IMG/VR virus record: IMGVR_UViG_3300009709_000007
Span: 1 to 46,787 of that record
DNA: 46,787 nt
From: a virus
Reading direction: 5' to 3' (one strand)
Shown here: in pieces, positions 124 to 46,787 of the stretch
Position numbering within the stretch: the stretch's first letter is position 1
How the letters are laid out: each line of letters begins with the position of its first letter
Position numbers and translations under genes: made by a program
Notes under the pieces: generated by a model
Databases searched by the model: none
The model's input: the letters and a program-made list of their open reading frames with translations, nothing else
What the model was told of the DNA's origin: nothing

Positions 124-146
124 TTTTCCGACGTGTTTGGTACAGT
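118..146 (+). promoter_or_regulatory. Candidate rightward promoter of module 1: weak -35 tagtga, 17-nt spacer, -10 TACAGT ending 7 nt before ATG 154
   Basis: Hexamers and spacing read from the sequence. The same geometry occurs at 29761-29789 before ATG 29796. Neither ATG has a Shine-Dalgarno. Confidence 0.3.
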
Positions 147-153
147 CCGCGCC

Positions 154-636
154 ATGGCATCCGAGCATGACATCCAACCCATAAAGGCTTCGCTAGTCGC
201 AGACCTGGTGGGACTCATCAACATCAACTTGGCCGACCTACTGTCGATCAAGGCGATTGCATGCCCGACGTGCGACGGCGCTTGTCAGGTGGGCACGATG
301 CAGGATGAGACCTTGACCACCTGTGCTACCTGCGGCGGCGTGGGGGCGGTCGAGCAGTTTGTCTTCGATATGCCGATGCTGAAGTCGATCCGGTTCGGCC
401 GATTGATCGAGGGCTGGGACGTCAAACAGGGCCAAATCGTCCCCAAGATGCGCAGTAAAACCGCTGCCTACGCCACGTTGGTCAAGCTGTTGGGCTTCGA
501 CAAGGCTGTGCTGGAAATCGCCAACGGTGCCGATTTCGCCGAATCGCTGTCCGAAGCCCAACGTGCCGCATACGTGGAGCAGCTGAAAGAGCTAGCCGCA
601 GCGGGCGCGCTTGATCAGATGGGTAAGCGCGCATGA
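154..636 (+). CDS. terS: Putative terminase small subunit with a CxxC...CxxCxGxG zinc-finger motif
   Basis: First gene of the structural operon, upstream of terL. The C-terminal MRSKTAAYATLVKLLGF resembles small terminases (recall only). Motifs CPTCDGAC and CATCGGVG are present. I trimmed the track start GTG 133 to ATG 154 by analogy with the paralogous junction at 29796. Confidence 0.55.
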   Translation: MASEHDIQPIKASLVADLVGLININLADLLSIKAIACPTCDGACQVGTMQDETLTTCATCGGVGAVEQFVFDMPMLKSIRFGRLIEGWDVKQGQIVPKMRSKTAAYATLVKLLGFDKAVLEIANGADFAESLSEAQRAAYVEQLKELAAAGALDQMGKRA

Positions 637-9524: not shown

Positions 9525-9553
9525 GGGCAGTTCCTCAATGGGTTAGTGGGGTC

Positions 9554-9582
9554 ATCTTATCGCTAGGTAATCGCGTTGTCAA
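9554..9582 (-). promoter_or_regulatory. Sigma70-like promoter, conserved-spacer family
   Basis: The reverse complement reads gtgTTGACAacgcGATTACCTAGCGATAAGAT (17-nt spacer). Confidence 0.75.
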
Positions 9583-9652
9583 CACTTGAGGCGCGTTGCC
9601 GTGCAGTCAGTGTGAGGCTGCTAAAACCGTGCGGTAACGAATGGAGCCACGC

Positions 9653-10631: not shown

Positions 10632-11462
10632 TCATGACTTACCTCCGGCGCGCTCGAGTGCGGCAAAAAGGGCATCGCGCTCGCTACACCACGCCGCCGA
10701 CCGCGCCGACTCCGCCGCCGCCGACCGCGCCGACCACGCCGACCACGCCGCCGACCGCGCCGCCGACCACGCCGACCGCGCCGCCGACCGCGCCGCCGAC
10801 CGCGCCGACGCCGCCGACGCCGCCGCCGACCACGCCGCCGCCGACTCCGCCGCCGACTCCGCCGCCGACTCCGCCGCCGCCGACCACGCCGACCGCGCCG
10901 CCGACCGCGCCGCCGACCGCGCCGCCGACCGCGCCGCCGACAATTCGCATGTGTTGCCACCGGCGGCGGCCTCGTGTGCGCGGCGACCGACACCCAGCGC
11001 GGCGATAACGCCTTCGATTGCCTCATGCACGCCGTGGTCATGCTTCTTTTTCAGGAGCTCACTCAACGTGCCGAACTGCCGGTCAATACGATCAATGGCG
11101 ATCCAGTGCTGGACAGGCTCAAGATCAGCTCCCACCGGGATCCGCTTAGCCAGGTCAACATGGAAGTTGGCCCTGAGCTCCTGCGGAAGACCTTCGAACA
11201 TCGAATCCTGAAGGCGGATCAACCAGACGGGGAGTCCACGCGCTCCTGCCACCACCTCGTGCCAGTTGGCACCCGTGGTCGGTTCGATCTCGTGAGCAAA
11301 GCAGCCAACCGAGCAGCCCCGGAACTGGCCGGCGTCTACGTCACCGAACGTGCCGGCGACCAACATGTCAGCAGCAGCGTGCCGCTCGGCCTGGGCAACG
11401 TGAGTCGCCTTCAGCGCGGCATCGCCGAAGAAAGACAAATGGGACTTATTGGTAGTGGTCAT
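10632..11462 (-). CDS. Hypothetical protein: ~170-aa N-terminal domain plus ~85 residues of SAAX tetrapeptide repeats
   Basis: This is the only frame with a coherent non-repeat N-terminus, an RBS (aggaaa) and its own promoter (11491-11519). The repeat region reads SAARSAARSAARSAARSAWSAAAESAAESAAESAAAWSAA... Confidence 0.7.
   Translation of the reverse strand: MTTTNKSHLSFFGDAALKATHVAQAERHAAADMLVAGTFGDVDAGQFRGCSVGCFAHEIEPTTGANWHEVVAGARGLPVWLIRLQDSMFEGLPQELRANFHVDLAKRIPVGADLEPVQHWIAIDRIDRQFGTLSELLKKKHDHGVHEAIEGVIAALGVGRRAHEAAAGGNTCELSAARSAARSAARSAARSAWSAAAESAAESAAESAAAWSAAASAASARSAARSAARSAWSAARSAAWSAWSARSAAAESARSAAWCSERDALFAALERAGGKS
10684..10945. repeat. Tandem 12-bp (some 9-bp) GC-rich coding repeats
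   Basis: Units such as gccgccgaccgc repeat about 22 times. On the coding strand each unit is tcggcggcgcgg, which encodes SAAR. The track shows ORFs in four frames across the region because the repeats lack stop codons. Confidence 0.9.
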
Positions 11463-11490
11463 GGGGTTTCCTGTCTGTGAGTGTGTGACT

Positions 11491-11519
11491 ACTTTATCGA
11501 AAGGTAACTGCTATGTCAA
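11491..11519 (-). promoter_or_regulatory. Sigma70-like promoter, conserved-spacer family (drives the SAAX-repeat gene)
   Basis: The reverse complement reads gtgTTGACAtagcAGTTACCTTTCGATAAAGT (17-nt spacer). Confidence 0.7.
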
Positions 11520-11522
11520 CAC

Positions 11523-12550: not shown

Positions 12551-12582
12551 TGTGGGGGCGTCTAGCAGGTGAGTGTGGGCGT

Positions 12583-12611
12583 AGCTTACCGCTAGGTAAT
12601 CGGCATGTCAA
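12583..12611 (-). promoter_or_regulatory. Sigma70-like promoter, conserved-spacer family (drives cassette 2)
   Basis: The reverse complement reads gtgTTGACAtgccGATTACCTAGCGGTAAGCT. It has a 17-nt spacer and a perfect TTACC-tagc-GGTAA dyad. Confidence 0.75.
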
Positions 12612-12678
12612 CACCCCTAGAGCGCGGCATCGTGATATTCTCCCACTACATCAACCTTTAGCCCTTTGGAGCACCCTC

Positions 12679-15048: not shown

Positions 15049-15578
15049 CCGCCGTGCTCACCCCCACCGAGGATCAGGTGTTCGGCCAGGTCTGGGACCT
15101 AATCGCCGCCTACTTCGATCCGTCGGTGCAGCAGGTCATCTTCAAGGGCTTCCAGAACCTGACCGCGACGCCTAAGGGTAGCTACATCGTCATCTCCCCG
15201 GGCGTGAACGTCCGGCAGAATCAGCTTGAGCGCGGTTACGACCCGGTAACGGGCATGCAAATCTTGACCCGCCGCACGACCTACAGCTATCAGGTGGACT
15301 GTTATGGGCCGATGGGTCCGGATTGGGCCAACACGATCGCTATCGCCTGGCCTTCCCTGTGGTCGATCGACAATAGCGACCAGCCGCCCATGATCACCCC
15401 CCTGTACGCTGACGAGCCTCAGCAGCTGAACATCGTCAACGGCGAGTTGCAGTGGGAGCAGCGCTTCATGTGCAAGCTCTACGGACAAGTCAACCACCGG
15501 GTGGCGTTGCCGCAGACGTTCTTCACCGATCCGCCCGCTATCGGGCTCGTTGTCGCTGACGACCTGCCCGTGGTGTAA
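15045..15578 (+). CDS. Putative tail terminator/neck protein
   Basis: ATG 15045 overlaps the upstream stop as ATGA. 177 aa, immediately upstream of the sheath-like gene. Confidence 0.45.
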   Translation: MTAVLTPTEDQVFGQVWDLIAAYFDPSVQQVIFKGFQNLTATPKGSYIVISPGVNVRQNQLERGYDPVTGMQILTRRTTYSYQVDCYGPMGPDWANTIAIAWPSLWSIDNSDQPPMITPLYADEPQQLNIVNGELQWEQRFMCKLYGQVNHRVALPQTFFTDPPAIGLVVADDLPVV

Positions 15579-25119: not shown

Positions 25120-25355
25120 GCGTGGGTGTCTCCGGCGGTGGGTGGGCGGATCATCTCGGCGGCGTCGTGGCGATGGTCGCCGCGGGACAGGTAGTAGCCG
25201 TGGGCGGCCAGCAGCAGGAAGGCGATCAGCTTGCGGTGCTCGTGCAGGGCCTGGTCGGCGCGATTGGCGAAGTGCCAGGCCCGGCGAAGGTCCGCGACAG
25301 CCTGCTGGTCGATCCAGGAGGCAAGGCCGTGCCGCAACGTGGTGATCGTCTTCAT
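25116..25355 (-). CDS. Hypothetical protein, candidate leaderless gene
   Basis: ATG 25355 (MKTITTL) lies 6 nt downstream of the -10 of promoter 25362-25390. No Shine-Dalgarno is present. Confidence 0.5.
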   Translation of the reverse strand: MKTITTLRHGLASWIDQQAVADLRRAWHFANRADQALHEHRKLIAFLLLAAHGYYLSRGDHRHDAAEMIRPPTAGDTHA

Positions 25356-25361
25356 GGGCAA

Positions 25362-25390
25362 AGGATAGTCCTAGGTAACCGGGATGTCAA
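25362..25390 (-). promoter_or_regulatory. Sigma70-like promoter, conserved-spacer family (internal to the replication module)
   Basis: The reverse complement reads gtgTTGACAtcccGGTTACCTAGGACTATCCT (17-nt spacer), then ttgccc, then ATG. Confidence 0.7.
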
Positions 25391-25440
25391 CACTTAGCGC
25401 GAACGGATCGCACCGCCGCGCCGAGTGTAGACGAACGCCC

Positions 25441-25656
25441 TCACATGTCGTTGACGTTCTGTTCAGCCTGTTCAGCGAGGCGCAGGTTCCGTGCTGCACG
25501 CTTAGCACGCTTCTTCTCGGCCTTGGTCTGCCGTTCCGGGTTGGGTACCGTCCCGCGCCGCGGCGTGATGGGTCCGACGAGCGCGCGCAATGCGTGCTCG
25601 TCGCCTTCGATCGCTGCCGTCGCCAGCAGCATGGCGGCCAGTCCGACGCCGCGCAT
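25441..25656 (-). CDS. Hypothetical basic small protein
   Basis: 71 aa with a Lys/Arg-rich C-terminal half. TAATG stop/start overlap with the upstream gene. Confidence 0.45.
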   Translation of the reverse strand: MRGVGLAAMLLATAAIEGDEHALRALVGPITPRRGTVPNPERQTKAEKKRAKRAARNLRLAEQAEQNVNDM

Positions 25657-26379: not shown

Positions 26380-26600
26380 GCGTCACCCCGCGGCACATAG
26401 GGTATCAGCAACTCCACGAATTCCTTAGCGTTCTCTCGCAAGCAGGAAATCAGCGAATCTTCATCGATTTCACCGTACACGGTGATCGATCCGAGCAGCG
26501 CGCGGAACTTGGCATCTTCAGCCAGCTGCGCCGCTTTCTTCGCGTCCAGCAGCTCTCGCAGCTTGTCTTCCTGCGCTACGGTCCAACGATCCTCAGCCAT
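26376..26600 (-). CDS. Hypothetical small protein
   Basis: Start trimmed to ATG 26600 (MAEDRWTV), which has a gaggtg RBS and lies downstream of the promoter at 26636-26663. Confidence 0.55.
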   Translation of the reverse strand: MAEDRWTVAQEDKLRELLDAKKAAQLAEDAKFRALLGSITVYGEIDEDSLISCLRENAKEFVELLIPYVPRGDA

Positions 26601-29085
26601 ATTGCACCTCGTTTGTGGGTTGTTCGGTAAGCGCGATCTTAGCATTTTCTTGCAGCATGTCAACAAAGGCCGGCGGGGCTTCGTAATAGCGCATACCCTT
26701 GGCATCGCAGCCCGCCTGCCAGCCGCGGGCCTTGAGCCAGCGGGCGACCTCCTGGGCCGAGAAGCGGCGCCCGGTGATCTGCACGTCCAGCGCGACGCGC
26801 AAGGCGGCGGACAGCACGCGCCAGTGGTTGCTGACGCGTGCGGCGGAGCGCTCGAGGATCGGCGGGAGGATGTCGTCCAGGTCCGACACCGGCAGGCCCA
26901 CGCCGTTGCGCATGGCCTCCTCGTTGAAGGCGCGCACCGCGTCGGAAGCTTCGCGCACGAGGGCCAGGTAATGCTCGTAGTCGGTGCAGAACCGCGCCTT
27001 AGCCTCGGCGACGATCTGGGCGACGTCCACGGCCCAGTTCGGGCTGGGCGACTGCATGACCCAGACGGGCATCAGGCGGCGCTCGCCGGTCTCGTCGCGG
27101 TAAATCTCCGGCTTGTTGGCCGTGCCGACCAGCGCGAAGCGGCGCGGGTGCGACTGCTCTTTTCGGCCGTAGGGCGTGCGGAAGACGTCCTGCGTGTCGG
27201 TGATCCAGTGCTTGACCTCTTCCACGTCGCGCTTGCCGTGCCCAGCCATCTCGGCGAGCTCGGCCACCGGGGAGCGCGCGGCGGCCATGGACATGCGACG
27301 CACGTCGCCGAACGGGAGCTCGGTCGGTGCCGGGAAACCCAGCGTCGTCGCGAACTGCTTGACCCACAGGCTTTTGCCCGGGCCCTGCTTGCCGATCAGC
27401 ACCGGCACGATAGGCGCTGGCGCGCCCGGGCGCAGCTGGCGCATGACCATGCCGGCGACGAACGCGCGTGCGGCGTAGGTCAGCGCCGTGCTGGGCAACG
27501 CGCCGAAAATGTCGGAGAACATCTCGTCCAGCCGATCCACGCCGTCCCACTGCGGCAGGGCCAGGATGGCATCCTTCCACGGGTCCACCGGATTGCTGGC
27601 AGCCAGGTGGTCGCGGGCGCGCTCCACGGTACCGTCGGAGACCTGCGAACAGCCCACGTGCGTCAGCGCGGCCAGCCACGCCGAGACGGAGGGGCCATCG
27701 GTAGGCAGCACCTCCTCGAGGCACACGTCCAGCGCCAGCTCGATATCGGCGGCACGCGCCAGGTGGTCCATGGCGAACATCACGTTGCGCAGCGAGTTAC
27801 GTTTCTTGTCGCCGCGGTCGGGCCATTCCTCGAAGGTGCCGCGCAGGCGCTCGGCGGCCAGTTCGAGCGGCGTGGATGGCTCATGCGCATGCGCGTCGGC
27901 GAACTCGAAGAATTCCTGAAGCTTGTGCGACCAGATGCCGGGCTTGCCGCGCATCGTGACGATTTCGGCCTTGCCAAGGTGTCCGGGCTTCAGGTCCGGG
28001 CGGAAGGTGTCGAAGGGGTCGGCGCACGTGCGCCCGAGCGCGCTGGAAAGGTTGTCCAGCACCTGCTCGACGGTGATAACCGGCTCGACGCCCGCGACGC
28101 GCAGCGGCCAGGACAGTGGCAGGCGGCGGTCACCCAGCGCGCGCAGCGCCAGCACGCCCAGGCGGTCGCCATCCTCGCGCCCAGCGGCCAGCGCGTTGCC
28201 GCGGTGATAGTCCAGCGCGACACGCTTGGCCTCCACGCGCAGGCGATCCTTGGCCTGGCGCACGGCCGCGTCGAAGCGACGGCGGGCGATGTCGGTAACG
28301 GCAGGCAGTTCCTGCACGTCCAGCCAGCCCTCGGGTGTCTTGTACCTGGCGACCTTGGTCAGGACTTCCGGTGCGCGGTGCACCCACGCCTGATCGGCGG
28401 GCACGTCACGCACGACACCCTCGGCCAGCTTGGGATGGGCTTCGAACATCAGCCGCGAGGACTGGTAGACCGTTGCGTCCGACAACTGGCGCACCAAGAG
28501 GGCACCCGAACGGCTGATCACGATGCGGCCGCGTCCGGCCGCCCACTGGTCCAGCTGGATACGCTTGCCCAGATCGGGAATGTCGGACCCCCGAGTCACG
28601 GGCACGTAGACATGCACGCCGCGTAGGCCGCGGCCACCGACGAACGACGAGGACGAGGGGCGCGCGGCGCGCGCGACGTGGCGCAGCCACGGTGAGGTGG
28701 CCTCCAAGGCGTCCAGAACGTCCGCAACCGTGTTGTAGACACCCGTGTCGGTGTCCACGTCGATTGGGAAGAATGCAGGCCCATCGAGGTAGCGAAAGGC
28801 TTCATTGGTCCGAGCGACGGCCTGAGGATTGAAGTCGGCGCCCTTGCGCGTCGTCAGCGGCGTGTCGCCCACGAGCGGCACGCCCAGGGTGATAGCCTGG
28901 TGGTCCGTAAGGGAGTCCAGCAGTGTGCGCAGACCGTCCAAGTCGGGCACTTCGCGAATGCTCGCGTGGCCCTGGGTCATGTGGGCAATGGCGGAACTCG
29001 TAATGTTTCCGCTGTCGTTCAGTTCAAAAGTTTTGGTCATCTCGCAGGAAGCGGAGGTGACGACTGTCAAGCGTGGGCTTGCCAT
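26593..29085 (-). CDS. DNA primase/helicase, VirE (virulence-associated protein E)-like
   Basis: 830 aa. P-loop LIGKQGPGKSLW lies in the C-terminal half, and a large N-terminal domain is present. The size and its co-occurrence with PolA, DUF2815 and DUF2800-like genes fit VirE-type primases (recall). Confidence 0.75.
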   Translation of the reverse strand: MASPRLTVVTSASCEMTKTFELNDSGNITSSAIAHMTQGHASIREVPDLDGLRTLLDSLTDHQAITLGVPLVGDTPLTTRKGADFNPQAVARTNEAFRYLDGPAFFPIDVDTDTGVYNTVADVLDALEATSPWLRHVARAARPSSSSFVGGRGLRGVHVYVPVTRGSDIPDLGKRIQLDQWAAGRGRIVISRSGALLVRQLSDATVYQSSRLMFEAHPKLAEGVVRDVPADQAWVHRAPEVLTKVARYKTPEGWLDVQELPAVTDIARRRFDAAVRQAKDRLRVEAKRVALDYHRGNALAAGREDGDRLGVLALRALGDRRLPLSWPLRVAGVEPVITVEQVLDNLSSALGRTCADPFDTFRPDLKPGHLGKAEIVTMRGKPGIWSHKLQEFFEFADAHAHEPSTPLELAAERLRGTFEEWPDRGDKKRNSLRNVMFAMDHLARAADIELALDVCLEEVLPTDGPSVSAWLAALTHVGCSQVSDGTVERARDHLAASNPVDPWKDAILALPQWDGVDRLDEMFSDIFGALPSTALTYAARAFVAGMVMRQLRPGAPAPIVPVLIGKQGPGKSLWVKQFATTLGFPAPTELPFGDVRRMSMAAARSPVAELAEMAGHGKRDVEEVKHWITDTQDVFRTPYGRKEQSHPRRFALVGTANKPEIYRDETGERRLMPVWVMQSPSPNWAVDVAQIVAEAKARFCTDYEHYLALVREASDAVRAFNEEAMRNGVGLPVSDLDDILPPILERSAARVSNHWRVLSAALRVALDVQITGRRFSAQEVARWLKARGWQAGCDAKGMRYYEAPPAFVDMLQENAKIALTEQPTNEVQYG
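26636..26663 (-). promoter_or_regulatory. Sigma70-like promoter embedded in the 3' end of the primase gene
   Basis: The reverse complement reads TTGACA-tgctgcaagaaaatgc(16)-TAAGAT. It lacks the conserved TTACC spacer motif. Confidence 0.55.
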
Positions 29086-29115: not shown

Positions 29116-29439
29116 TTAGCTCAGATTGCCGGGCGTCTGGTCAAGTCCGATGAAATAGTAGCCTGTAGGGCCGCGACGTTGTACGGGAAAGACTTTGGCG
29201 AGTTGTCGCCCTAGGTTGACCAGTTCGCCGTGCGTCGCGCGTCGCTGGCGAATAGCCTCGAACAGCGACTTGGCGGTAAACCAGCCGTGCACGTTGGCTC
29301 GCAATTTGTCCAGTTCGTGAGGTTGAAACACAGCAGCGCTGCAAGCGCCTTTGTTGGCGATCAGATAGTGACCACCGTGTGTGCGGTTGAACGCTGCGGC
29401 CGTCTCGATCGCCTGCGCGAGGATGTCGGTAGTTTCCAT
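29116..29439 (-). CDS. Hypothetical protein, first gene of the replication module
   Basis: Start trimmed to ATG 29439 (METTDIL), which has an aaggac RBS and lies downstream of the promoter at 29467-29495. Confidence 0.55.
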   Translation of the reverse strand: METTDILAQAIETAAAFNRTHGGHYLIANKGACSAAVFQPHELDKLRANVHGWFTAKSLFEAIRQRRATHGELVNLGRQLAKVFPVQRRGPTGYYFIGLDQTPGNLS

Positions 29440-29466
29440 AGGAGTCCTTGGTTTGAGTGCGCGATT

Positions 29467-29495
29467 ACAATACATGCAACCATCTTAGCGGTCAA
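29467..29495 (-). promoter_or_regulatory. Sigma70-like leftward promoter of the replication module
   Basis: The reverse complement reads TTGACC-gctaagatggttgcatg(17)-TATTGT. It lies just left of the AT-rich element. Confidence 0.6.
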
Positions 29496-29504
29496 CCACG
29501 TAAC

Positions 29505-29761
29505 CGTCTCGTCTATCGTGAACTTCCATCTCATCACCATCTTGACCAAATCTTTAGGAAAGACAGAGGAACAGAGGATATTTTCTACTTTCTTATATTT
29601 AATATATTTCTATAAATAGTAGTGTAGGGATAGATATTTATATATATACAGGTGTTTTCGCATATAGAGAAAAGTTTGAAGAATCGTCATCTGTCCTCTG
29701 TTCGTCTGTTCGTCTGTTACATTTGAAACTAATTCAAACACGCGTTTGAGACCAAAGTAGT
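29505..29761. repeat. AT-rich junction element, copy 1 (~257 bp, ~32% GC by hand count)
   Basis: Aligns without gaps to 46531-46785. Positions 29540-29761 are identical to 46566-46785 except for one extra TA. It contains inverted 8-mer iterons, a (TA)5 run and a TTTGAA-N5-TTCAAA dyad. Confidence 0.95.
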
Positions 29762-29789
29762 AGCTTCTGACGCCCGGCACGGATACGAT
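29761..29789 (+). promoter_or_regulatory. Candidate rightward promoter of module 3: weak -35 tagctt, 17-nt spacer, -10 TACGAT ending 6 nt before ATG 29796
   Basis: Same geometry as 118-146. No Shine-Dalgarno precedes the ATG. Confidence 0.3.
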
Positions 29790-29795
29790 TGGCGC

Positions 29796-30179
29796 ATGGA
29801 CACCCTGCGCCTCGACAACGACTCTTGGGACCTCACGCTGGACGTCTGGGGCAACCTGGCGACGGCCGGTGACGCTACACCCGAGTCAGAGAGCACAGGA
29901 CCGGGCATGCGTCTCGCGCAAGACGTCGCCTGTCGCGTGCGGTCGTGGAAGGGCGAGGTGTATTTCGACACGGCACAGGGCATTGACTATCCGCGCTACC
30001 TCGGCGGCCCGCCCAACCTGTCACTGCTTCAGGCGGCCTTCGCGCAGGAAGCGCTCAACGTGCCCGGCTGCTTGACCGCGTTGCCCGACTTCCACTTCAT
30101 CGGCGGATCGGATCGAGCGGTCACAGGCACCATCACACTATCCGATACGGCCGGCAACGGCTCGCAGGTGACGCTATGA
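29796..30179 (+). CDS. Putative baseplate/tail protein
   Basis: 127 aa, first gene of the tail module. The N-terminal pattern (DNDSWDLTLD..GNLA..) resembles small baseplate proteins by recall. Confidence 0.4.
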   Translation: MDTLRLDNDSWDLTLDVWGNLATAGDATPESESTGPGMRLAQDVACRVRSWKGEVYFDTAQGIDYPRYLGGPPNLSLLQAAFAQEALNVPGCLTALPDFHFIGGSDRAVTGTITLSDTAGNGSQVTL

Positions 30180-44389: not shown

Positions 44390-45082
44390 TCAGCCGAACG
44401 GGTTATCCGCGCCAGCGCCGGACTGCTGGAAGGGGTTGTCGGTCTTTGGCGCACCCACCGTACCATCCGCCACGATGGCCGTGGTGGCCGTACCCGCAAC
44501 AACCGTGTTGCCGAACGGGTTGTCCTGGCCGCTGCTGGCCTTGCCCGTCTGGTCCGGGGCAGACGCATCGGCGTACTGCGCGAAGGCGTTGGTCACGACC
44601 GCCTCGGTGCCGATGTTCATGCGCTCACCGTCGCCGGCGTCCATGACGCCCGTCAGGTTGAACGACACGCCGTTCTTCTTGTCGTAGGTCCACGCGAAGG
44701 CGGACAGGATGACGCGCACGCGGCGCCCCGGGTAGAACGCGGCCTTGATCGCAGCCTTGTGCGTTTCCTGGTCCAGGCGGTCGCCGTTGCGGGCGATGAC
44801 GGCCGGAGCGAACTGCGTGCTGGCGCGCACGACGAGCCAGTCATCCGGGATACCCGGGATCGGCGATTCGGTCCTGGCGTTGGGCTTGACACCCATCTGA
44901 AGGCCGGTGGTGTTGCCACCCGGCGCGACGGACTTCACGAGTTCGAGAAGGTCGCTGCCGGCTTCCGGCGGAAATGCCACCTTGGCGTAGAACTGGAGCG
45001 GGTTGCCGGGTTTCTTCTTGTTCGGCGTGGCCTCGGCGAGCGAGGAGTGGGTCAGAATCGCGAGATGGTCTTGCAGTGCCAT
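44390..45082 (-). CDS. ssDNA-binding protein (DUF2815-like)
   Basis: 230 aa with a Gly/Ala/Thr-rich flexible C-terminus ending in repeated DNPF(G/Q) motifs. It is paired with a DUF2800-like nuclease, as in PolA/VirE phage modules (recall). Confidence 0.65.
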   Translation of the reverse strand: MALQDHLAILTHSSLAEATPNKKKPGNPLQFYAKVAFPPEAGSDLLELVKSVAPGGNTTGLQMGVKPNARTESPIPGIPDDWLVVRASTQFAPAVIARNGDRLDQETHKAAIKAAFYPGRRVRVILSAFAWTYDKKNGVSFNLTGVMDAGDGERMNIGTEAVVTNAFAQYADASAPDQTGKASSGQDNPFGNTVVAGTATTAIVADGTVGAPKTDNPFQQSGAGADNPFG

Positions 45083-45252: not shown

Positions 45253-45281
45253 ATCTTGTCGGAATTGAATCGTCGCGTCAA
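45253..45281 (-). promoter_or_regulatory. Candidate promoter for the SSB gene
   Basis: The reverse complement reads TTGACG-cgacgattcaattccga(17)-CAAGAT. It overlaps the nuclease stop codon and would give a leader of about 160 nt. Confidence 0.35.
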
Positions 45282-46471
45282 GACTTATTCGCGTACTTTT
45301 CGAAGATCAGCGCAACGTCGCCCGGGTTGGACTTCGTGACGGCAGTGATCGTCTGCGACGACGCCGAGCGCTTGACCAGTGAGTCCCGCACCTCGGCAGG
45401 AATGGCATGTAAGGCGTCGGAAAGCGCGCAGGCGCGCAGCAGATCGGTGCGGCCAAGGGCTAGAAGGGTCAGGCCTGCATCCTTGTCGTTGATCCACATC
45501 TGGCGCCCCTGGGACGTCTTCAGGGTCAGTCCGGCATGGCCGGTCTTGACCAAGGCGGCTACGCGTTCCTCAATGTCCTCCTGGAAGTTCTTGAAGGCCG
45601 TGCGCATCGACCACAGGGTGACTACCTCGTCGTCGGTCATGTCGTGCAGGCTCGTCGGCTCGGCGTAGGCCTTCAGCGCGGCGGCGGCGAACTGGTTGAC
45701 CACGCCGCAGCGCGCCTTGGCTCGGCAGTAGCGACAATGGTCGCCCGGCACAGGTGTCGTGTGGTTCGGGTCGCTGGCTGTGGCCCGATCGACATGATCC
45801 GCTTCAATGGCGAGCCGGCCGCGCGCGTCCTCTAGCCAGGTCCCAGGCAGTTCCAGCACTACACCCGGCGTGCCGATGTGGCAGCGGGGCTGGTACACGG
45901 CGAGCAACACGCGCTCGGGCGTGAGGCCCGTCTGCTCGATAGCAGCGATGGCGTAGGCCTCAAGCTGCTTGTTCGGCGACTCGACAGTCCCGACGTCCAC
46001 GCTGGCGAACCCGTACTTGTAGTCCACCACAATCAGCGTCTTGGTGCTGGCGATCCAGATCAGGCAATCAGCCGTACCGAACAGTTGATCGTGAATGGAC
46101 GGCGCGGCCACCTTGTGCTCGACCGTGACAAAAGCATCGGCCGCCGACCCGATCAGCCCGATGATGAAGTCCCGGTAGCCCATGCCATGCCGGCGCAGGT
46201 CGGCGTCCCATTCTTCGAGCGTCTGCCCTTTGGGATCGAAGCCCTCCGGGAAGGCTTTGCGCGGCGGCACGTCTCCACGCTGGTGCCCCGGGAGCCGAAA
46301 GTGCTGCTTGACGTAGAACTCGGCGACCTCGTGGGCCTCCGTCCCTTCCGCTGCCGCAGGTGACGGCTTGTCGGGCATTCCTGCACTAAGGGGTACAGAA
46401 ACGGGGCATATCGCCCAACGTGCGCGTGACGAAAACGAGAGCTGGGAGTGGGTCGGTGCGGGATGGGTCAT
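45278..46471 (-). CDS. PD-(D/E)XK nuclease, DUF2800/Cas4-like
   Basis: 397 aa. GTADCLIW...VVDYKYG matches a D...(D/E)xK core. The C-terminal Cys cluster is CRYCRAKARC. It is the first gene of module 4. Confidence 0.75.
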   Translation of the reverse strand: MTHPAPTHSQLSFSSRARWAICPVSVPLSAGMPDKPSPAAAEGTEAHEVAEFYVKQHFRLPGHQRGDVPPRKAFPEGFDPKGQTLEEWDADLRRHGMGYRDFIIGLIGSAADAFVTVEHKVAAPSIHDQLFGTADCLIWIASTKTLIVVDYKYGFASVDVGTVESPNKQLEAYAIAAIEQTGLTPERVLLAVYQPRCHIGTPGVVLELPGTWLEDARGRLAIEADHVDRATASDPNHTTPVPGDHCRYCRAKARCGVVNQFAAAALKAYAEPTSLHDMTDDEVVTLWSMRTAFKNFQEDIEERVAALVKTGHAGLTLKTSQGRQMWINDKDAGLTLLALGRTDLLRACALSDALHAIPAEVRDSLVKRSASSQTITAVTKSNPGDVALIFEKYANKS

Positions 46472-46512: not shown

Positions 46513-46541
46513 AGTGTACTCGTTCCTTATCGTCTCGTCAA
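46513..46541 (-). promoter_or_regulatory. Sigma70-like leftward promoter of module 4
   Basis: The reverse complement reads TTGACG-agacgataaggaacgag(17)-TACACT. The -35 lies in the divergent left edge of the AT-rich element. Confidence 0.55.
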
Positions 46542-46785
46542 TCATGAATCGCCATCTTAGCACCTTCTTGACCAAATCTTTAGGAAAGACAGAGGAACAG
46601 AGGATATTTTCTACTTTCTTATATTTAATATATTTCTATAAATAGTAGTGTAGGGATAGATATTTATATATACAGGTGTTTTCGCATATAGAGAAAAGTT
46701 TGAAGAATCGTCATCTGTCCTCTGTTCGTCTGTTCGTCTGTTACATTTGAAACTAATTCAAACACGCGTTTGAGACCAAAGTAGT
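46531..46785. repeat. AT-rich junction element, copy 2 (255 bp; its right half is repeated as bases 1-121)
   Basis: Gap-free alignment to 29505-29761 at offset 17026, changing to 17024 after a (TA)4 versus (TA)5 difference. The last ~220 bp are otherwise identical. Confidence 0.95.
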
Positions 46786-46787
46786 GA

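Follow-up and report, generated by a model that had tools for sequence, protein, structure and literature searches.

Twin AT-rich elements at the divergent gene junctions of a GC-rich myophage genome, with a possible role as paired replication origins

Why should a virulent phage with a GC-rich genome carry two nearly identical stretches of AT-rich DNA, one at each of the places where leftward and rightward genes diverge? The question is raised by the IMG/VR virus record IMGVR_UViG_3300009709_000007, all 46,787 nucleotides of which are referred to here as the window, and in which the two copies of the element lie at 29505-29761 (copy A) and 46531-46785 (copy B). An earlier note, made from the letters alone, offered three candidate roles: a shared early-left/late-right control region, twin replication origins, or a packaging or terminus signal. 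Twin origins fits best, the control region holds in the window only, and the packaging role is not supported. The repeat pair is real, family-wide, and unannotated in public records. What it does is less certain: the reading preferred here, which we consider probable with ample room for doubt, is that the two are paired origin-like elements of the kind found in staphylococcal pathogenicity islands (SaPIs), served by a fused primase-helicase and homogenized by gene conversion.

The repeat pair and its anatomy

In a BLASTN alignment 29505-29761 and 46531-46785 agree at 247/257 positions, the only gap being one of 2 nt (E = 3e-121), so that the near-identity first seen by eye is confirmed. In a scripted check, 29540-29761 equals 46566-46785 once one TA is removed from a (TA)5 run, the left 35 bp contain exactly 8 mismatches, and the flanks past both ends are unrelated, all as had been counted by hand. 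The hand count of G+C was also right (71/220 nt, or 32.3%, for 29541-29760), as was the estimate that the genome exceeds 60% GC (62.1%); its lowest-GC 100-nt segments are the two elements themselves, at 0.21 and 0.27 GC with a genome standard deviation of 0.065. The flanking genes, identified through PHROG and Pfam, confirm the leftward/rightward split at both junctions. The parts of the element are as follows.

29505-29761: copy A of the repeat, at the primase/baseplate junction, delimited by BLASTN against copy B and by repeat families
46531-46785: copy B of the repeat, at the exonuclease/TerS-like junction; its right half is repeated as 1-121 via the terminal overlap
29563-29578, plus strand: iteron-like array on the left side of copy A, two head-to-tail units of ACAGAGGA repeating every 8 bp; equivalent in copy B, 46589-46604
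29579-29686: AT-rich core of copy A, 108 bp at 23% GC, candidate DNA-unwinding element, with (TA)5 at 29639-29648 and the box GTTTTCGCATATAGAGA at 29654-29670; equivalent in copy B, 46605-46710, with (TA)4 at 46665-46672
29687-29717, minus strand: right iteron-like array of copy A, consisting of ACAGAGGA, ACAGACGA, ACAGACGA and a degenerate fourth unit at 29687-29695; equivalent in copy B, 46711-46741, seen again as 47-77
29722-29748: two overlapping short palindromes in the right arm of copy A, TTTGAA-N5-TTCAAA and CAAAC-N4-GTTTG; equivalent in copy B, 46746-46772

Each copy therefore consists of two octamers on the plus strand, the core, and three octamers with their degenerate fourth on the minus strand, and the left and right arrays face each other. 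The octamer consensus is ACAGA(G/C)GA, with ACAGAGGA and ACAGACGA as unit forms, and it is confined to the element: all 13 ACAGASGA matches in the 46.8-kb window are inside the copies, compared with a chance expectation of 2.2, and none of 100 shuffles reaches 13. Scans of the core for sigma70 promoters and terminators found nothing, and Rfam at a permissive threshold gave one chance-level snoRNA match (15 bits, against a gathering score of 75).

Is this anatomy peculiar to one virus? Sensitive-mode BLASTN of the element against 50,697 phage records gave no match; the sequence is lineage-specific, and homologous elements were found only via the flanking genes. By that route about 30 junction-spanning sequences were inspected, from Bcep781/OP2/PQ43W-like isolate phages and metagenomic contigs. 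The nearest isolates, with 52-59% primase identity, are the Bcep781 group, Ralstonia phage PQ43W, and the Xanthomonas phages OP2, phiXaf18, XapPhi and PhiXhv. The suggestion that relatives might carry an equivalent element is borne out: an AT-rich repeat pair occupies both divergent junctions in all eight complete genomes checked and in the relative designated L011, and there is a matching element at every single junction recovered from partial contigs. The pairs in isolates vary in length, identity and relative orientation.

Bcep781: 377 nt, 91%, direct
PQ43W: at least 300 nt, 100%, direct
XapPhi1: 280 nt, 97%, direct
OP2: 326 nt, 99%, inverted
XPP1: 324 nt, 96%, inverted
phiXaf18: about 204 nt, inverted
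PhiXhv-1 (L002): only 79 nt of core in common, direct, at 29387-29465 and 45968-46046

The public records of Bcep781, OP2 and BcepNY3 have no annotation in these regions, and the published accounts of PQ43W, XapPhi and phiXaF18 do not mention the repeat.

What the family shares is a layout. In the 21 further metagenomic junctions an AT-rich spacer is flanked by inverted arrays whose 7-10-nt motif is specific to the lineage, and the plan recurs in Bcep781, PQ43W, XapPhi1, phiXaf18, OP2 and XPP1, each with its own motif; spacer lengths in the family are mostly 105-125 bp, with others of about 190-200 bp. Motifs in the metagenomic lineages include ACAGACGA, ACTGACGA, ACGGAGGA, CAGAGGC, TGACAGAT, ATGACA and TACGGTAGAG. 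Confinement to the element recurs as well: 14/15 motif matches are inside it in Bcep781, 5/5 in OP2, 5/5 in XPP1 and 6/7 in PQ43W. The box GTTTTCGCATATAGAGA reappears beside one array in relatives. The relative L025, with a primase 85% identical to that of the window, keeps the arrays and the AT-richness and lacks the palindromes of the right arm.

The orientation of the core was also compared across lineages. The element being quasi-symmetric, pairwise alignments of cores score higher than those of shuffled sequences whichever way round they are made, and therefore no absolute polarity is assigned across lineages. The L011 element aligns to its own reverse complement at 76%. The same figure was found in IMGVR_UViG_3300044946_000029, whose element is thus quasi-palindromic; this record (L039 6889-7058 and L040 1531-1700) has an exonuclease/primase arrangement and inverted copies at 98% identity.

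Repeats of another kind are also present. The window contains a tandem array of 9- and 12-nt units at 10647-10969, 83% GC and inside a minus-strand open reading frame (ORF; 10632-11462), and there are similar GC-rich arrays elsewhere in the genomes of PQ43W (1190-1530), XapPhi1 (44730-44940) and phiXaf18 (25250-25558).

A candidate initiator

If the arrays are binding sites, which protein might read them? The leading candidate is encoded to the left of copy A.

26593-29085, minus strand: primase-helicase, 830 aa, PHROG DNA primase

This protein has a VapE-like SF3 helicase domain at residues 512-724 (Pfam PF05272, 5.8e-42), and its only homologue in the Protein Data Bank is 7PDS, SaPI1 Rep1, matched by phmmer with E = 4.5e-21 (7PDS_A, residues 492-720) and in a profile search with E = 1.9e-37. 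A winged helix is predicted in its last ~90 residues, encoded within 26596-26940. The AlphaFold2 model of the last 115 aa has a pLDDT of 80 and an H-S-H-H-S-S topology, and most of its top Foldseek matches are winged-helix DNA binders (probability ~0.9, with weak E-values of 0.05-0.3).

A possible link between this domain and the arrays comes from co-variation. A first test with narrow motif classes gave no clear signal. Classes were then merged when they differed by one base, which places ACAGAGGA, ACGGAGGA and ACTGACGA in one class; winged-helix identity is then 0.51 within ACRGASGA-type lineages versus 0.36 between ACRGASGA and TGACA types, at equal divergence of the remaining protein (0.56 versus 0.54), a signal that is to be read with caution since it emerges only after merging. 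The type of wing follows motif class in 8 further lineages, G-x-D-x-x-G-M-R occurring with ACRGASGA and R-T-A-x-A-R with TGACA, and over ~22 lineages the wing type or winged-helix segment tracks motif class, these pairs not being phylogenetically independent. In a neighbor-joining tree of the part of the protein outside the winged helix the motif classes are interspersed, with L011 and L030 among the other class. Taken together, the comparisons suggest, short of proof, that the winged helix of the primase-helicase co-varies with the array motif.

The element's SaPI-type anatomy and a neighboring primase-helicase homologous to SaPI Rep are what commend twin origins among the roles first proposed. 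A possible sequence of events is that the ACAGA(G/C)GA octamers are recognized by the winged helix at the C-terminus of the 830-aa protein, that the opposed arrays place two helicase rings so as to flank the core, and that the 108-bp core melts and the fused primase begins synthesis, as in SaPI Rep/PriRep; negative supercoiling between divergent promoters would aid the opening of the core. Forks from either element would run with transcription through all four modules. The second copy might be a second origin, or an initiator-bound site of fork stalling such as has been proposed for SPP1 oriR, from which stalled forks would be passed to the phage exonuclease, annealing protein and RusA resolvase; this set of genes is encoded next to copy B. 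A more specific version, which is tentative and on balance unlikely, is that one copy fires while the other is a programmed fork barrier that switches replication to recombination-dependent concatemer synthesis, the arrays serving as substrates for quadrant inversion and replication staying co-oriented with transcription in every arrangement.

Several observations weigh against paired origins. Neither 7PDS nor 1KA8 (P4 alpha) is in the top 50 Foldseek matches of the C-terminal model, and the winged-helix E-values are weak (0.05-0.3). The co-varying pairs are phylogenetically non-independent, the neighbor-joining trees are unbootstrapped, and their deep branches are short. Copy B of PhiXhv-1 retains 79 nt of core at 95% identity without CAGAGG arrays, while copy A, on the primase side, has arrays on both sides, so the core may act in its own right. 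Copy A is upstream of the operon of a small ORF and the primase, with copy B 17 kb away, whereas the SaPI ori is just downstream of rep. The element sits exactly at promoter sites, and its near-equal spacing to the late start codons (34 and 32 nt) would not be required by an origin alone. The cumulative GC skew of the window has no origin signal; it tracks the coding strand (C > G on coding strands), and is uninformative on origins. Finally, no perfect DnaA box was found in the window.

Relatives do have such boxes, a point in favor of origins. PQ43W (in both copies), phiXaf18, L018 and L030 have perfect DnaA boxes, TTATCCACA, within their junctions, and in the complete genomes of PQ43W and phiXaf18 they are nowhere outside the junctions. 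Their positions are 16943 and 46893 in L003, 28976 in L005, the exonuclease-side junction in L018, and the primase junction in L030, which has two, inverted.

Concerted evolution, flanking promoters and the window ends

How do the two copies stay alike? The paralogous copies are 99.4% identical in OP2 and 95.7% in XPP1, the orthologous copies 93-95%, and in the OP2/XPP1 comparison several substitutions are common to both paralogues of one phage. In L025 the element is 75% identical to that of the window, with indels, while primase and TerS DNA is 81% identical. The element diverges faster than coding DNA, and its identity within a genome is therefore homogenization and not constraint; the description of it in the earlier note as sequence-frozen was misleading. 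These comparisons indicate that the copies are kept identical by gene conversion, and provide a clear example of non-coding DNA evolving in concert inside a phage genome, with repeats that also mark the breakpoints of rearrangement.

The evidence for rearrangement comes from orientation and gene order. The window, Bcep781, XapPhi1 and PQ43W have direct copies; OP2, XPP1, phiXaf18 and L011 have inverted ones. Some lineages pair exonuclease with TerS and primase with baseplate; others pair exonuclease with primase and TerS with baseplate. The exonuclease faces the primase in PQ43W and in 9/13 IMG/VR loci, and in PQ43W, the only genome of this type with both junctions available here, TerS faces the baseplate gene, an arrangement that can be had from the window's by inverting one of the segments between elements. 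Both module arrangements are found with both copy orientations, four combinations in all, and an unbootstrapped neighbor-joining tree of the exonuclease suggests at least 2 switches of arrangement. The elements thus appear, from gene order across lineages, to mark the breakpoints at which genome quadrants are rearranged. The inverted arrays at the element ends could be recombination substrates that invert a core or the segment between copies; either inversion leaves both junctions divergent, which would explain the observed states.

Could recombination be the whole explanation? The pair might be a recombination-maintained repeat, a hot spot or a selfish cassette in permissive intergenic DNA with no replicative role, which would suit the concerted evolution in OP2 and XPP1, the lower identity of the element than of coding DNA in the 85% relative (75% versus 81%), the existence of all four arrangement/orientation combinations, and the frequency with which short-read assemblies break inside the element (23/24 contigs; see below). 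This is improbable: the element is at both divergent junctions in eight complete genomes and L011, its architecture is kept while its sequence turns over, its motifs are confined to it and co-vary with a protein domain, and its copy number is always two, with no associated transposase or recombinase. Less probable by far is an invertible genetic switch, in which transcription would be redirected in the course of infection by the inversion of a core or of a genome segment. Inverted arrays do flank each core, and copy orientation and module arrangement do vary between lineages, but all 17 OP2-group records (90-97% identity) are collinear with OP2 across both junctions in one piece, so the configuration is stable there and not an active flip-flop, and no invertase or integrase was found either among 24 proteins scanned against Pfam or among the annotated products of six relatives. 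Flip-flop polymorphism, looked for in those 17 records, was not seen.

PQ43W also bears on transcription, since one of its copies is adjoined on both sides by early modules and the other on both sides by late ones. The shared sequence thus has early genes for neighbors at some sites and late genes at others, and cannot itself encode temporal class. The genes and putative promoters around the two copies in the window are:

29116-29439, minus strand: small ORF, ~107 aa, first gene left of copy A, no family match
29796-30179, plus strand: baseplate wedge, right of copy A
45278-46471, minus strand: PD-(D/E)XK exonuclease, left of copy B
154-636, plus strand: TerS-position gene, right of copy B, followed by an HNH endonuclease and TerL
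29467-29495, minus strand: sigma70-like leftward promoter of the small ORF and primase operon, TTGACC-17-TATTGT, just outside copy A
46513-46541, minus strand: sigma70-like leftward promoter of the exonuclease operon, TTGACG-17-TACACT
29784-29798, plus strand: -10-like TACGAT 20 bp to the right of copy A, separated by 6 nt from the baseplate wedge ATG
141-156, plus strand: -10-like TACAGT, 7 nt, then ATG 154, 20 bp right of copy B

The position of the small ORF is kept in the Xanthomonas-phage relatives and several metagenomic ones, and it is absent in Bcep781. The -35 hexamer of the exonuclease promoter falls in the degenerate left 35 bp of copy B. On the late side, the distance from repeat end to ATG is 34 nt for copy A and 32 nt for copy B; TACACT-N6-7-ATG precedes late genes in Bcep781, PQ43W, phiXaf18 and L012, and GTTTGGTACAGTGCGCGAC-ATG is kept in L025. 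The -10-like boxes may be activator-dependent late promoters giving leaderless or very short-leader transcripts.

This layout is a ground for another possibility, that the element is a shared bidirectional transcription-control region, with the arrays as operators or activator sites and the AT-rich core as an upstream or promoter element; the regulator might be the primase-helicase itself, and the cassette would then coordinate four operons, a role that could coexist with that of an origin. Each of the four operons has a copy at its 5' end, the left edge of either copy is adjoined or overlapped by a sigma70-like leftward promoter, and the -10-like boxes, 6-7 nt before the late starts and 20 bp past the right edge, have nearly equal spacing in both copies. 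In Bcep781 the repeat takes in the upstream region on the late side and continues into the start codon of each late operon, copy B of PhiXhv-1 keeps its core without arrays, and the phiXaf18 record annotates predicted promoters in these regions. Against this, the core has no sigma70 consensus and the arrays are ~70-120 bp from the nearest promoter hexamers; outward-facing -35/-10 pairs were not found within the shared sequence, and each junction has one consensus match, at or outside the left edge. The scan against Pfam of 24 proteins, 20 small early-module ORFs and the four proteins flanking the junctions, found no HTH, regulator, invertase or integrase domain, and the array motif co-varies with the primase-helicase C-terminus. 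The proposed early-left/late-right division agrees with the promoters of the window and fails in relatives: with inverted copies (OP2, XPP1, phiXaf18, L011) the same shared sequence is early-facing at one junction and late-facing at the other, and with the PQ43W pairing one copy is early-facing on both sides and the other late-facing on both, so that timing is not set by the element. As the function of the pair, transcription control is a possibility to be kept in mind, though a doubtful one.

Some features of the neighborhood are of interest in themselves. The ORF caller began the TerS-position gene at GTG 133 (ORF 133-636); relatives point to ATG 154 as the likely true start. Its product has CxxC...CxxC motifs and is named 'anti-TRAP' in phiXaf18, the TerS role being assigned by position alone. 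An HNH/homing endonuclease gene (679-1329) separates it from TerL, where Bcep781, PhiXhv-1 and OP2 have nothing. In the relative L029 an HTH_3 (Cro/CI-type) gene at 518-916 is located between exonuclease and element, in a junction of 684 bp at 37% GC. The window also has a 40-nt repeat family (9546-9585, 11483-11522, 12575-12614, 25354-25393), which on the minus strand reads GTGTTGACA-N17-TAAGAT, a near-consensus sigma70 promoter with the conserved spacer GTTACCTAG; every copy precedes minus-strand genes, and three are located within the plus-strand head module. Its counterpart in phiXaf18 is a 76-nt family at 15464, 18445 and 26048.

There remains the fact that the window starts and stops inside copy B, which had suggested a packaging (pac/cos) or genome-terminus signal.

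1-123: terminal overlap, identical to 46665-46787 (exact 123 nt)

Since this overlap is exact, 1-121 is a second reading of copy B and no third copy, and one genome unit measures 46,664 bp. The left end of the overlap coincides with that of the 121-nt exact A/B block, where the assembly graph branches, and the overlap exceeds that block by 2 nt. It is probably the result of a de Bruijn assembler circularizing across the repeat, and not a physical DNA end; at a guess, its length is k-1 for k=124. One copy does always adjoin the TerS-position gene, as a packaging site might. Set against that are the report that phiXaF18 is circularly permuted and terminally redundant, with headful packaging (PMC7163016), the unrelated positions at which the public records of relatives begin, and the second copy beside the primase and the co-variation with the primase-helicase, neither of which packaging would explain. 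The terminus reading is an assembly artefact, and a packaging function for the element is very improbable.

The practical lesson is that the element breaks short-read assemblies and can produce false terminal repeats: in Logan assemblies of the 85% relative, 23/24 contigs carrying its primase end inside the element. Two assemblies deserve comment. The Logan SRR31771853 contig (L025/L038), with the element at L025 6077-6418, joins TerS, element and small ORF-primase in a junction of a type not seen elsewhere; this must be a chimera made by the assembler across the repeat, or else a true recombinant, for example the sub-circle or duplication expected from direct-repeat recombination. The deposited genome of PhiXhv-1 has an exact 127-nt tandem duplication (11012-11138 and 11139-11265), and as 127 nt is a common assembler k-mer this too is probably an artefact.

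Comparison with known systems

To our knowledge no origin has been mapped in these phages, members of a group under development against Burkholderia, Xanthomonas and Ralstonia. Should the elements prove to be paired origins, the SaPI design of an origin with a self-loading helicase would extend to a large group of virulent GC-rich myophages, and octamers, winged helix and 108-bp core would become directly testable. The four-quadrant layout would also be explained by a simple rule, origins at both divergent junctions, under which forks always follow transcription. Iteron/AT-rich origins are a known kind; what would be new is their presence at both divergent junctions, their concerted evolution, their free orientation, and the link to quadrant rearrangement.

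The closest parallel is with the SaPIs, whose Reps are self-loading helicases and initiators with a C-terminal winged helix that reads penta- or hexanucleotide iterons, and whose ori has an AT-rich centre with at least 2 iterons on each side in opposite directions; in SaPI5, pri and rep are fused (PMC9371898). The phage protein has a helicase domain homologous to SaPI1 Rep1 (7PDS), joined to a primase as in SaPI5 PriRep, and a predicted C-terminal winged helix. The element likewise has at least two short repeats on each side of an AT-rich centre, opposed (here 2 octamers on the plus strand and 3-4 on the minus), and specificity differs between lineages in the SaPIs, as it probably does here. 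The differences are that the repeats here are octamers instead of penta- or hexamers, that the element is upstream of the initiator operon and the SaPI ori just downstream of rep, that there are two copies per genome, 17 kb apart, and that the host replicon is a virulent GC-rich myophage and not a satellite island.

For the pairing of elements the better comparison is SPP1. The portions of the SPP1 review drawn on here (PMC6316719) describe oriL and oriR as each combining repeats with an AT-rich unwinding element, the two being bound by a single initiator of the phage, and give the proposal that the second origin stalls forks and so starts recombination-dependent replication via exonuclease, annealing protein and resolvase. 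On that account both phages have two origin-type elements of the same repeat and AT-rich plan in one genome of ~44-46 kb, and the window also encodes an exonuclease, an annealing/single-stranded DNA-binding protein and a Holliday-junction resolvase. In contrast to the window, SPP1 is described there as using gp38, a separate loader and a DnaB-type helicase; its repeats are direct, its oriL is inside gene 38, and its genes are almost all on one strand, with origins that are not at divergent junctions. Those portions of the review do not mention near-identity of the two origins by gene conversion.

P4 alpha combines primase, SF3 helicase and C-terminal winged helix, in that order, in one polypeptide (PMC2777425). 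Domain order is all that it and the window protein share. A relation to the origin-binding domain of P4 alpha was looked for and not found: 1KA8 was neither reached by the sequence profile nor among the top-50 fold matches. The P4 ori reportedly has octamer iterons and requires crr, giving two separated cis elements with the same repeats (Ziegelin and Lanka, 1995); ori and crr are said not to be near-identical copies. A last comparison is with the PeSL elements of T4-type phages, which combine early promoters with stem-loops, occur in many copies, and are associated with module shuffling. In both cases short repeated intergenic cassettes at operon starts coincide with rearrangement breakpoints; here, unlike PeSL, there are exactly two copies, with an iteron/AT-core anatomy, and it is whole quadrants that are re-joined.

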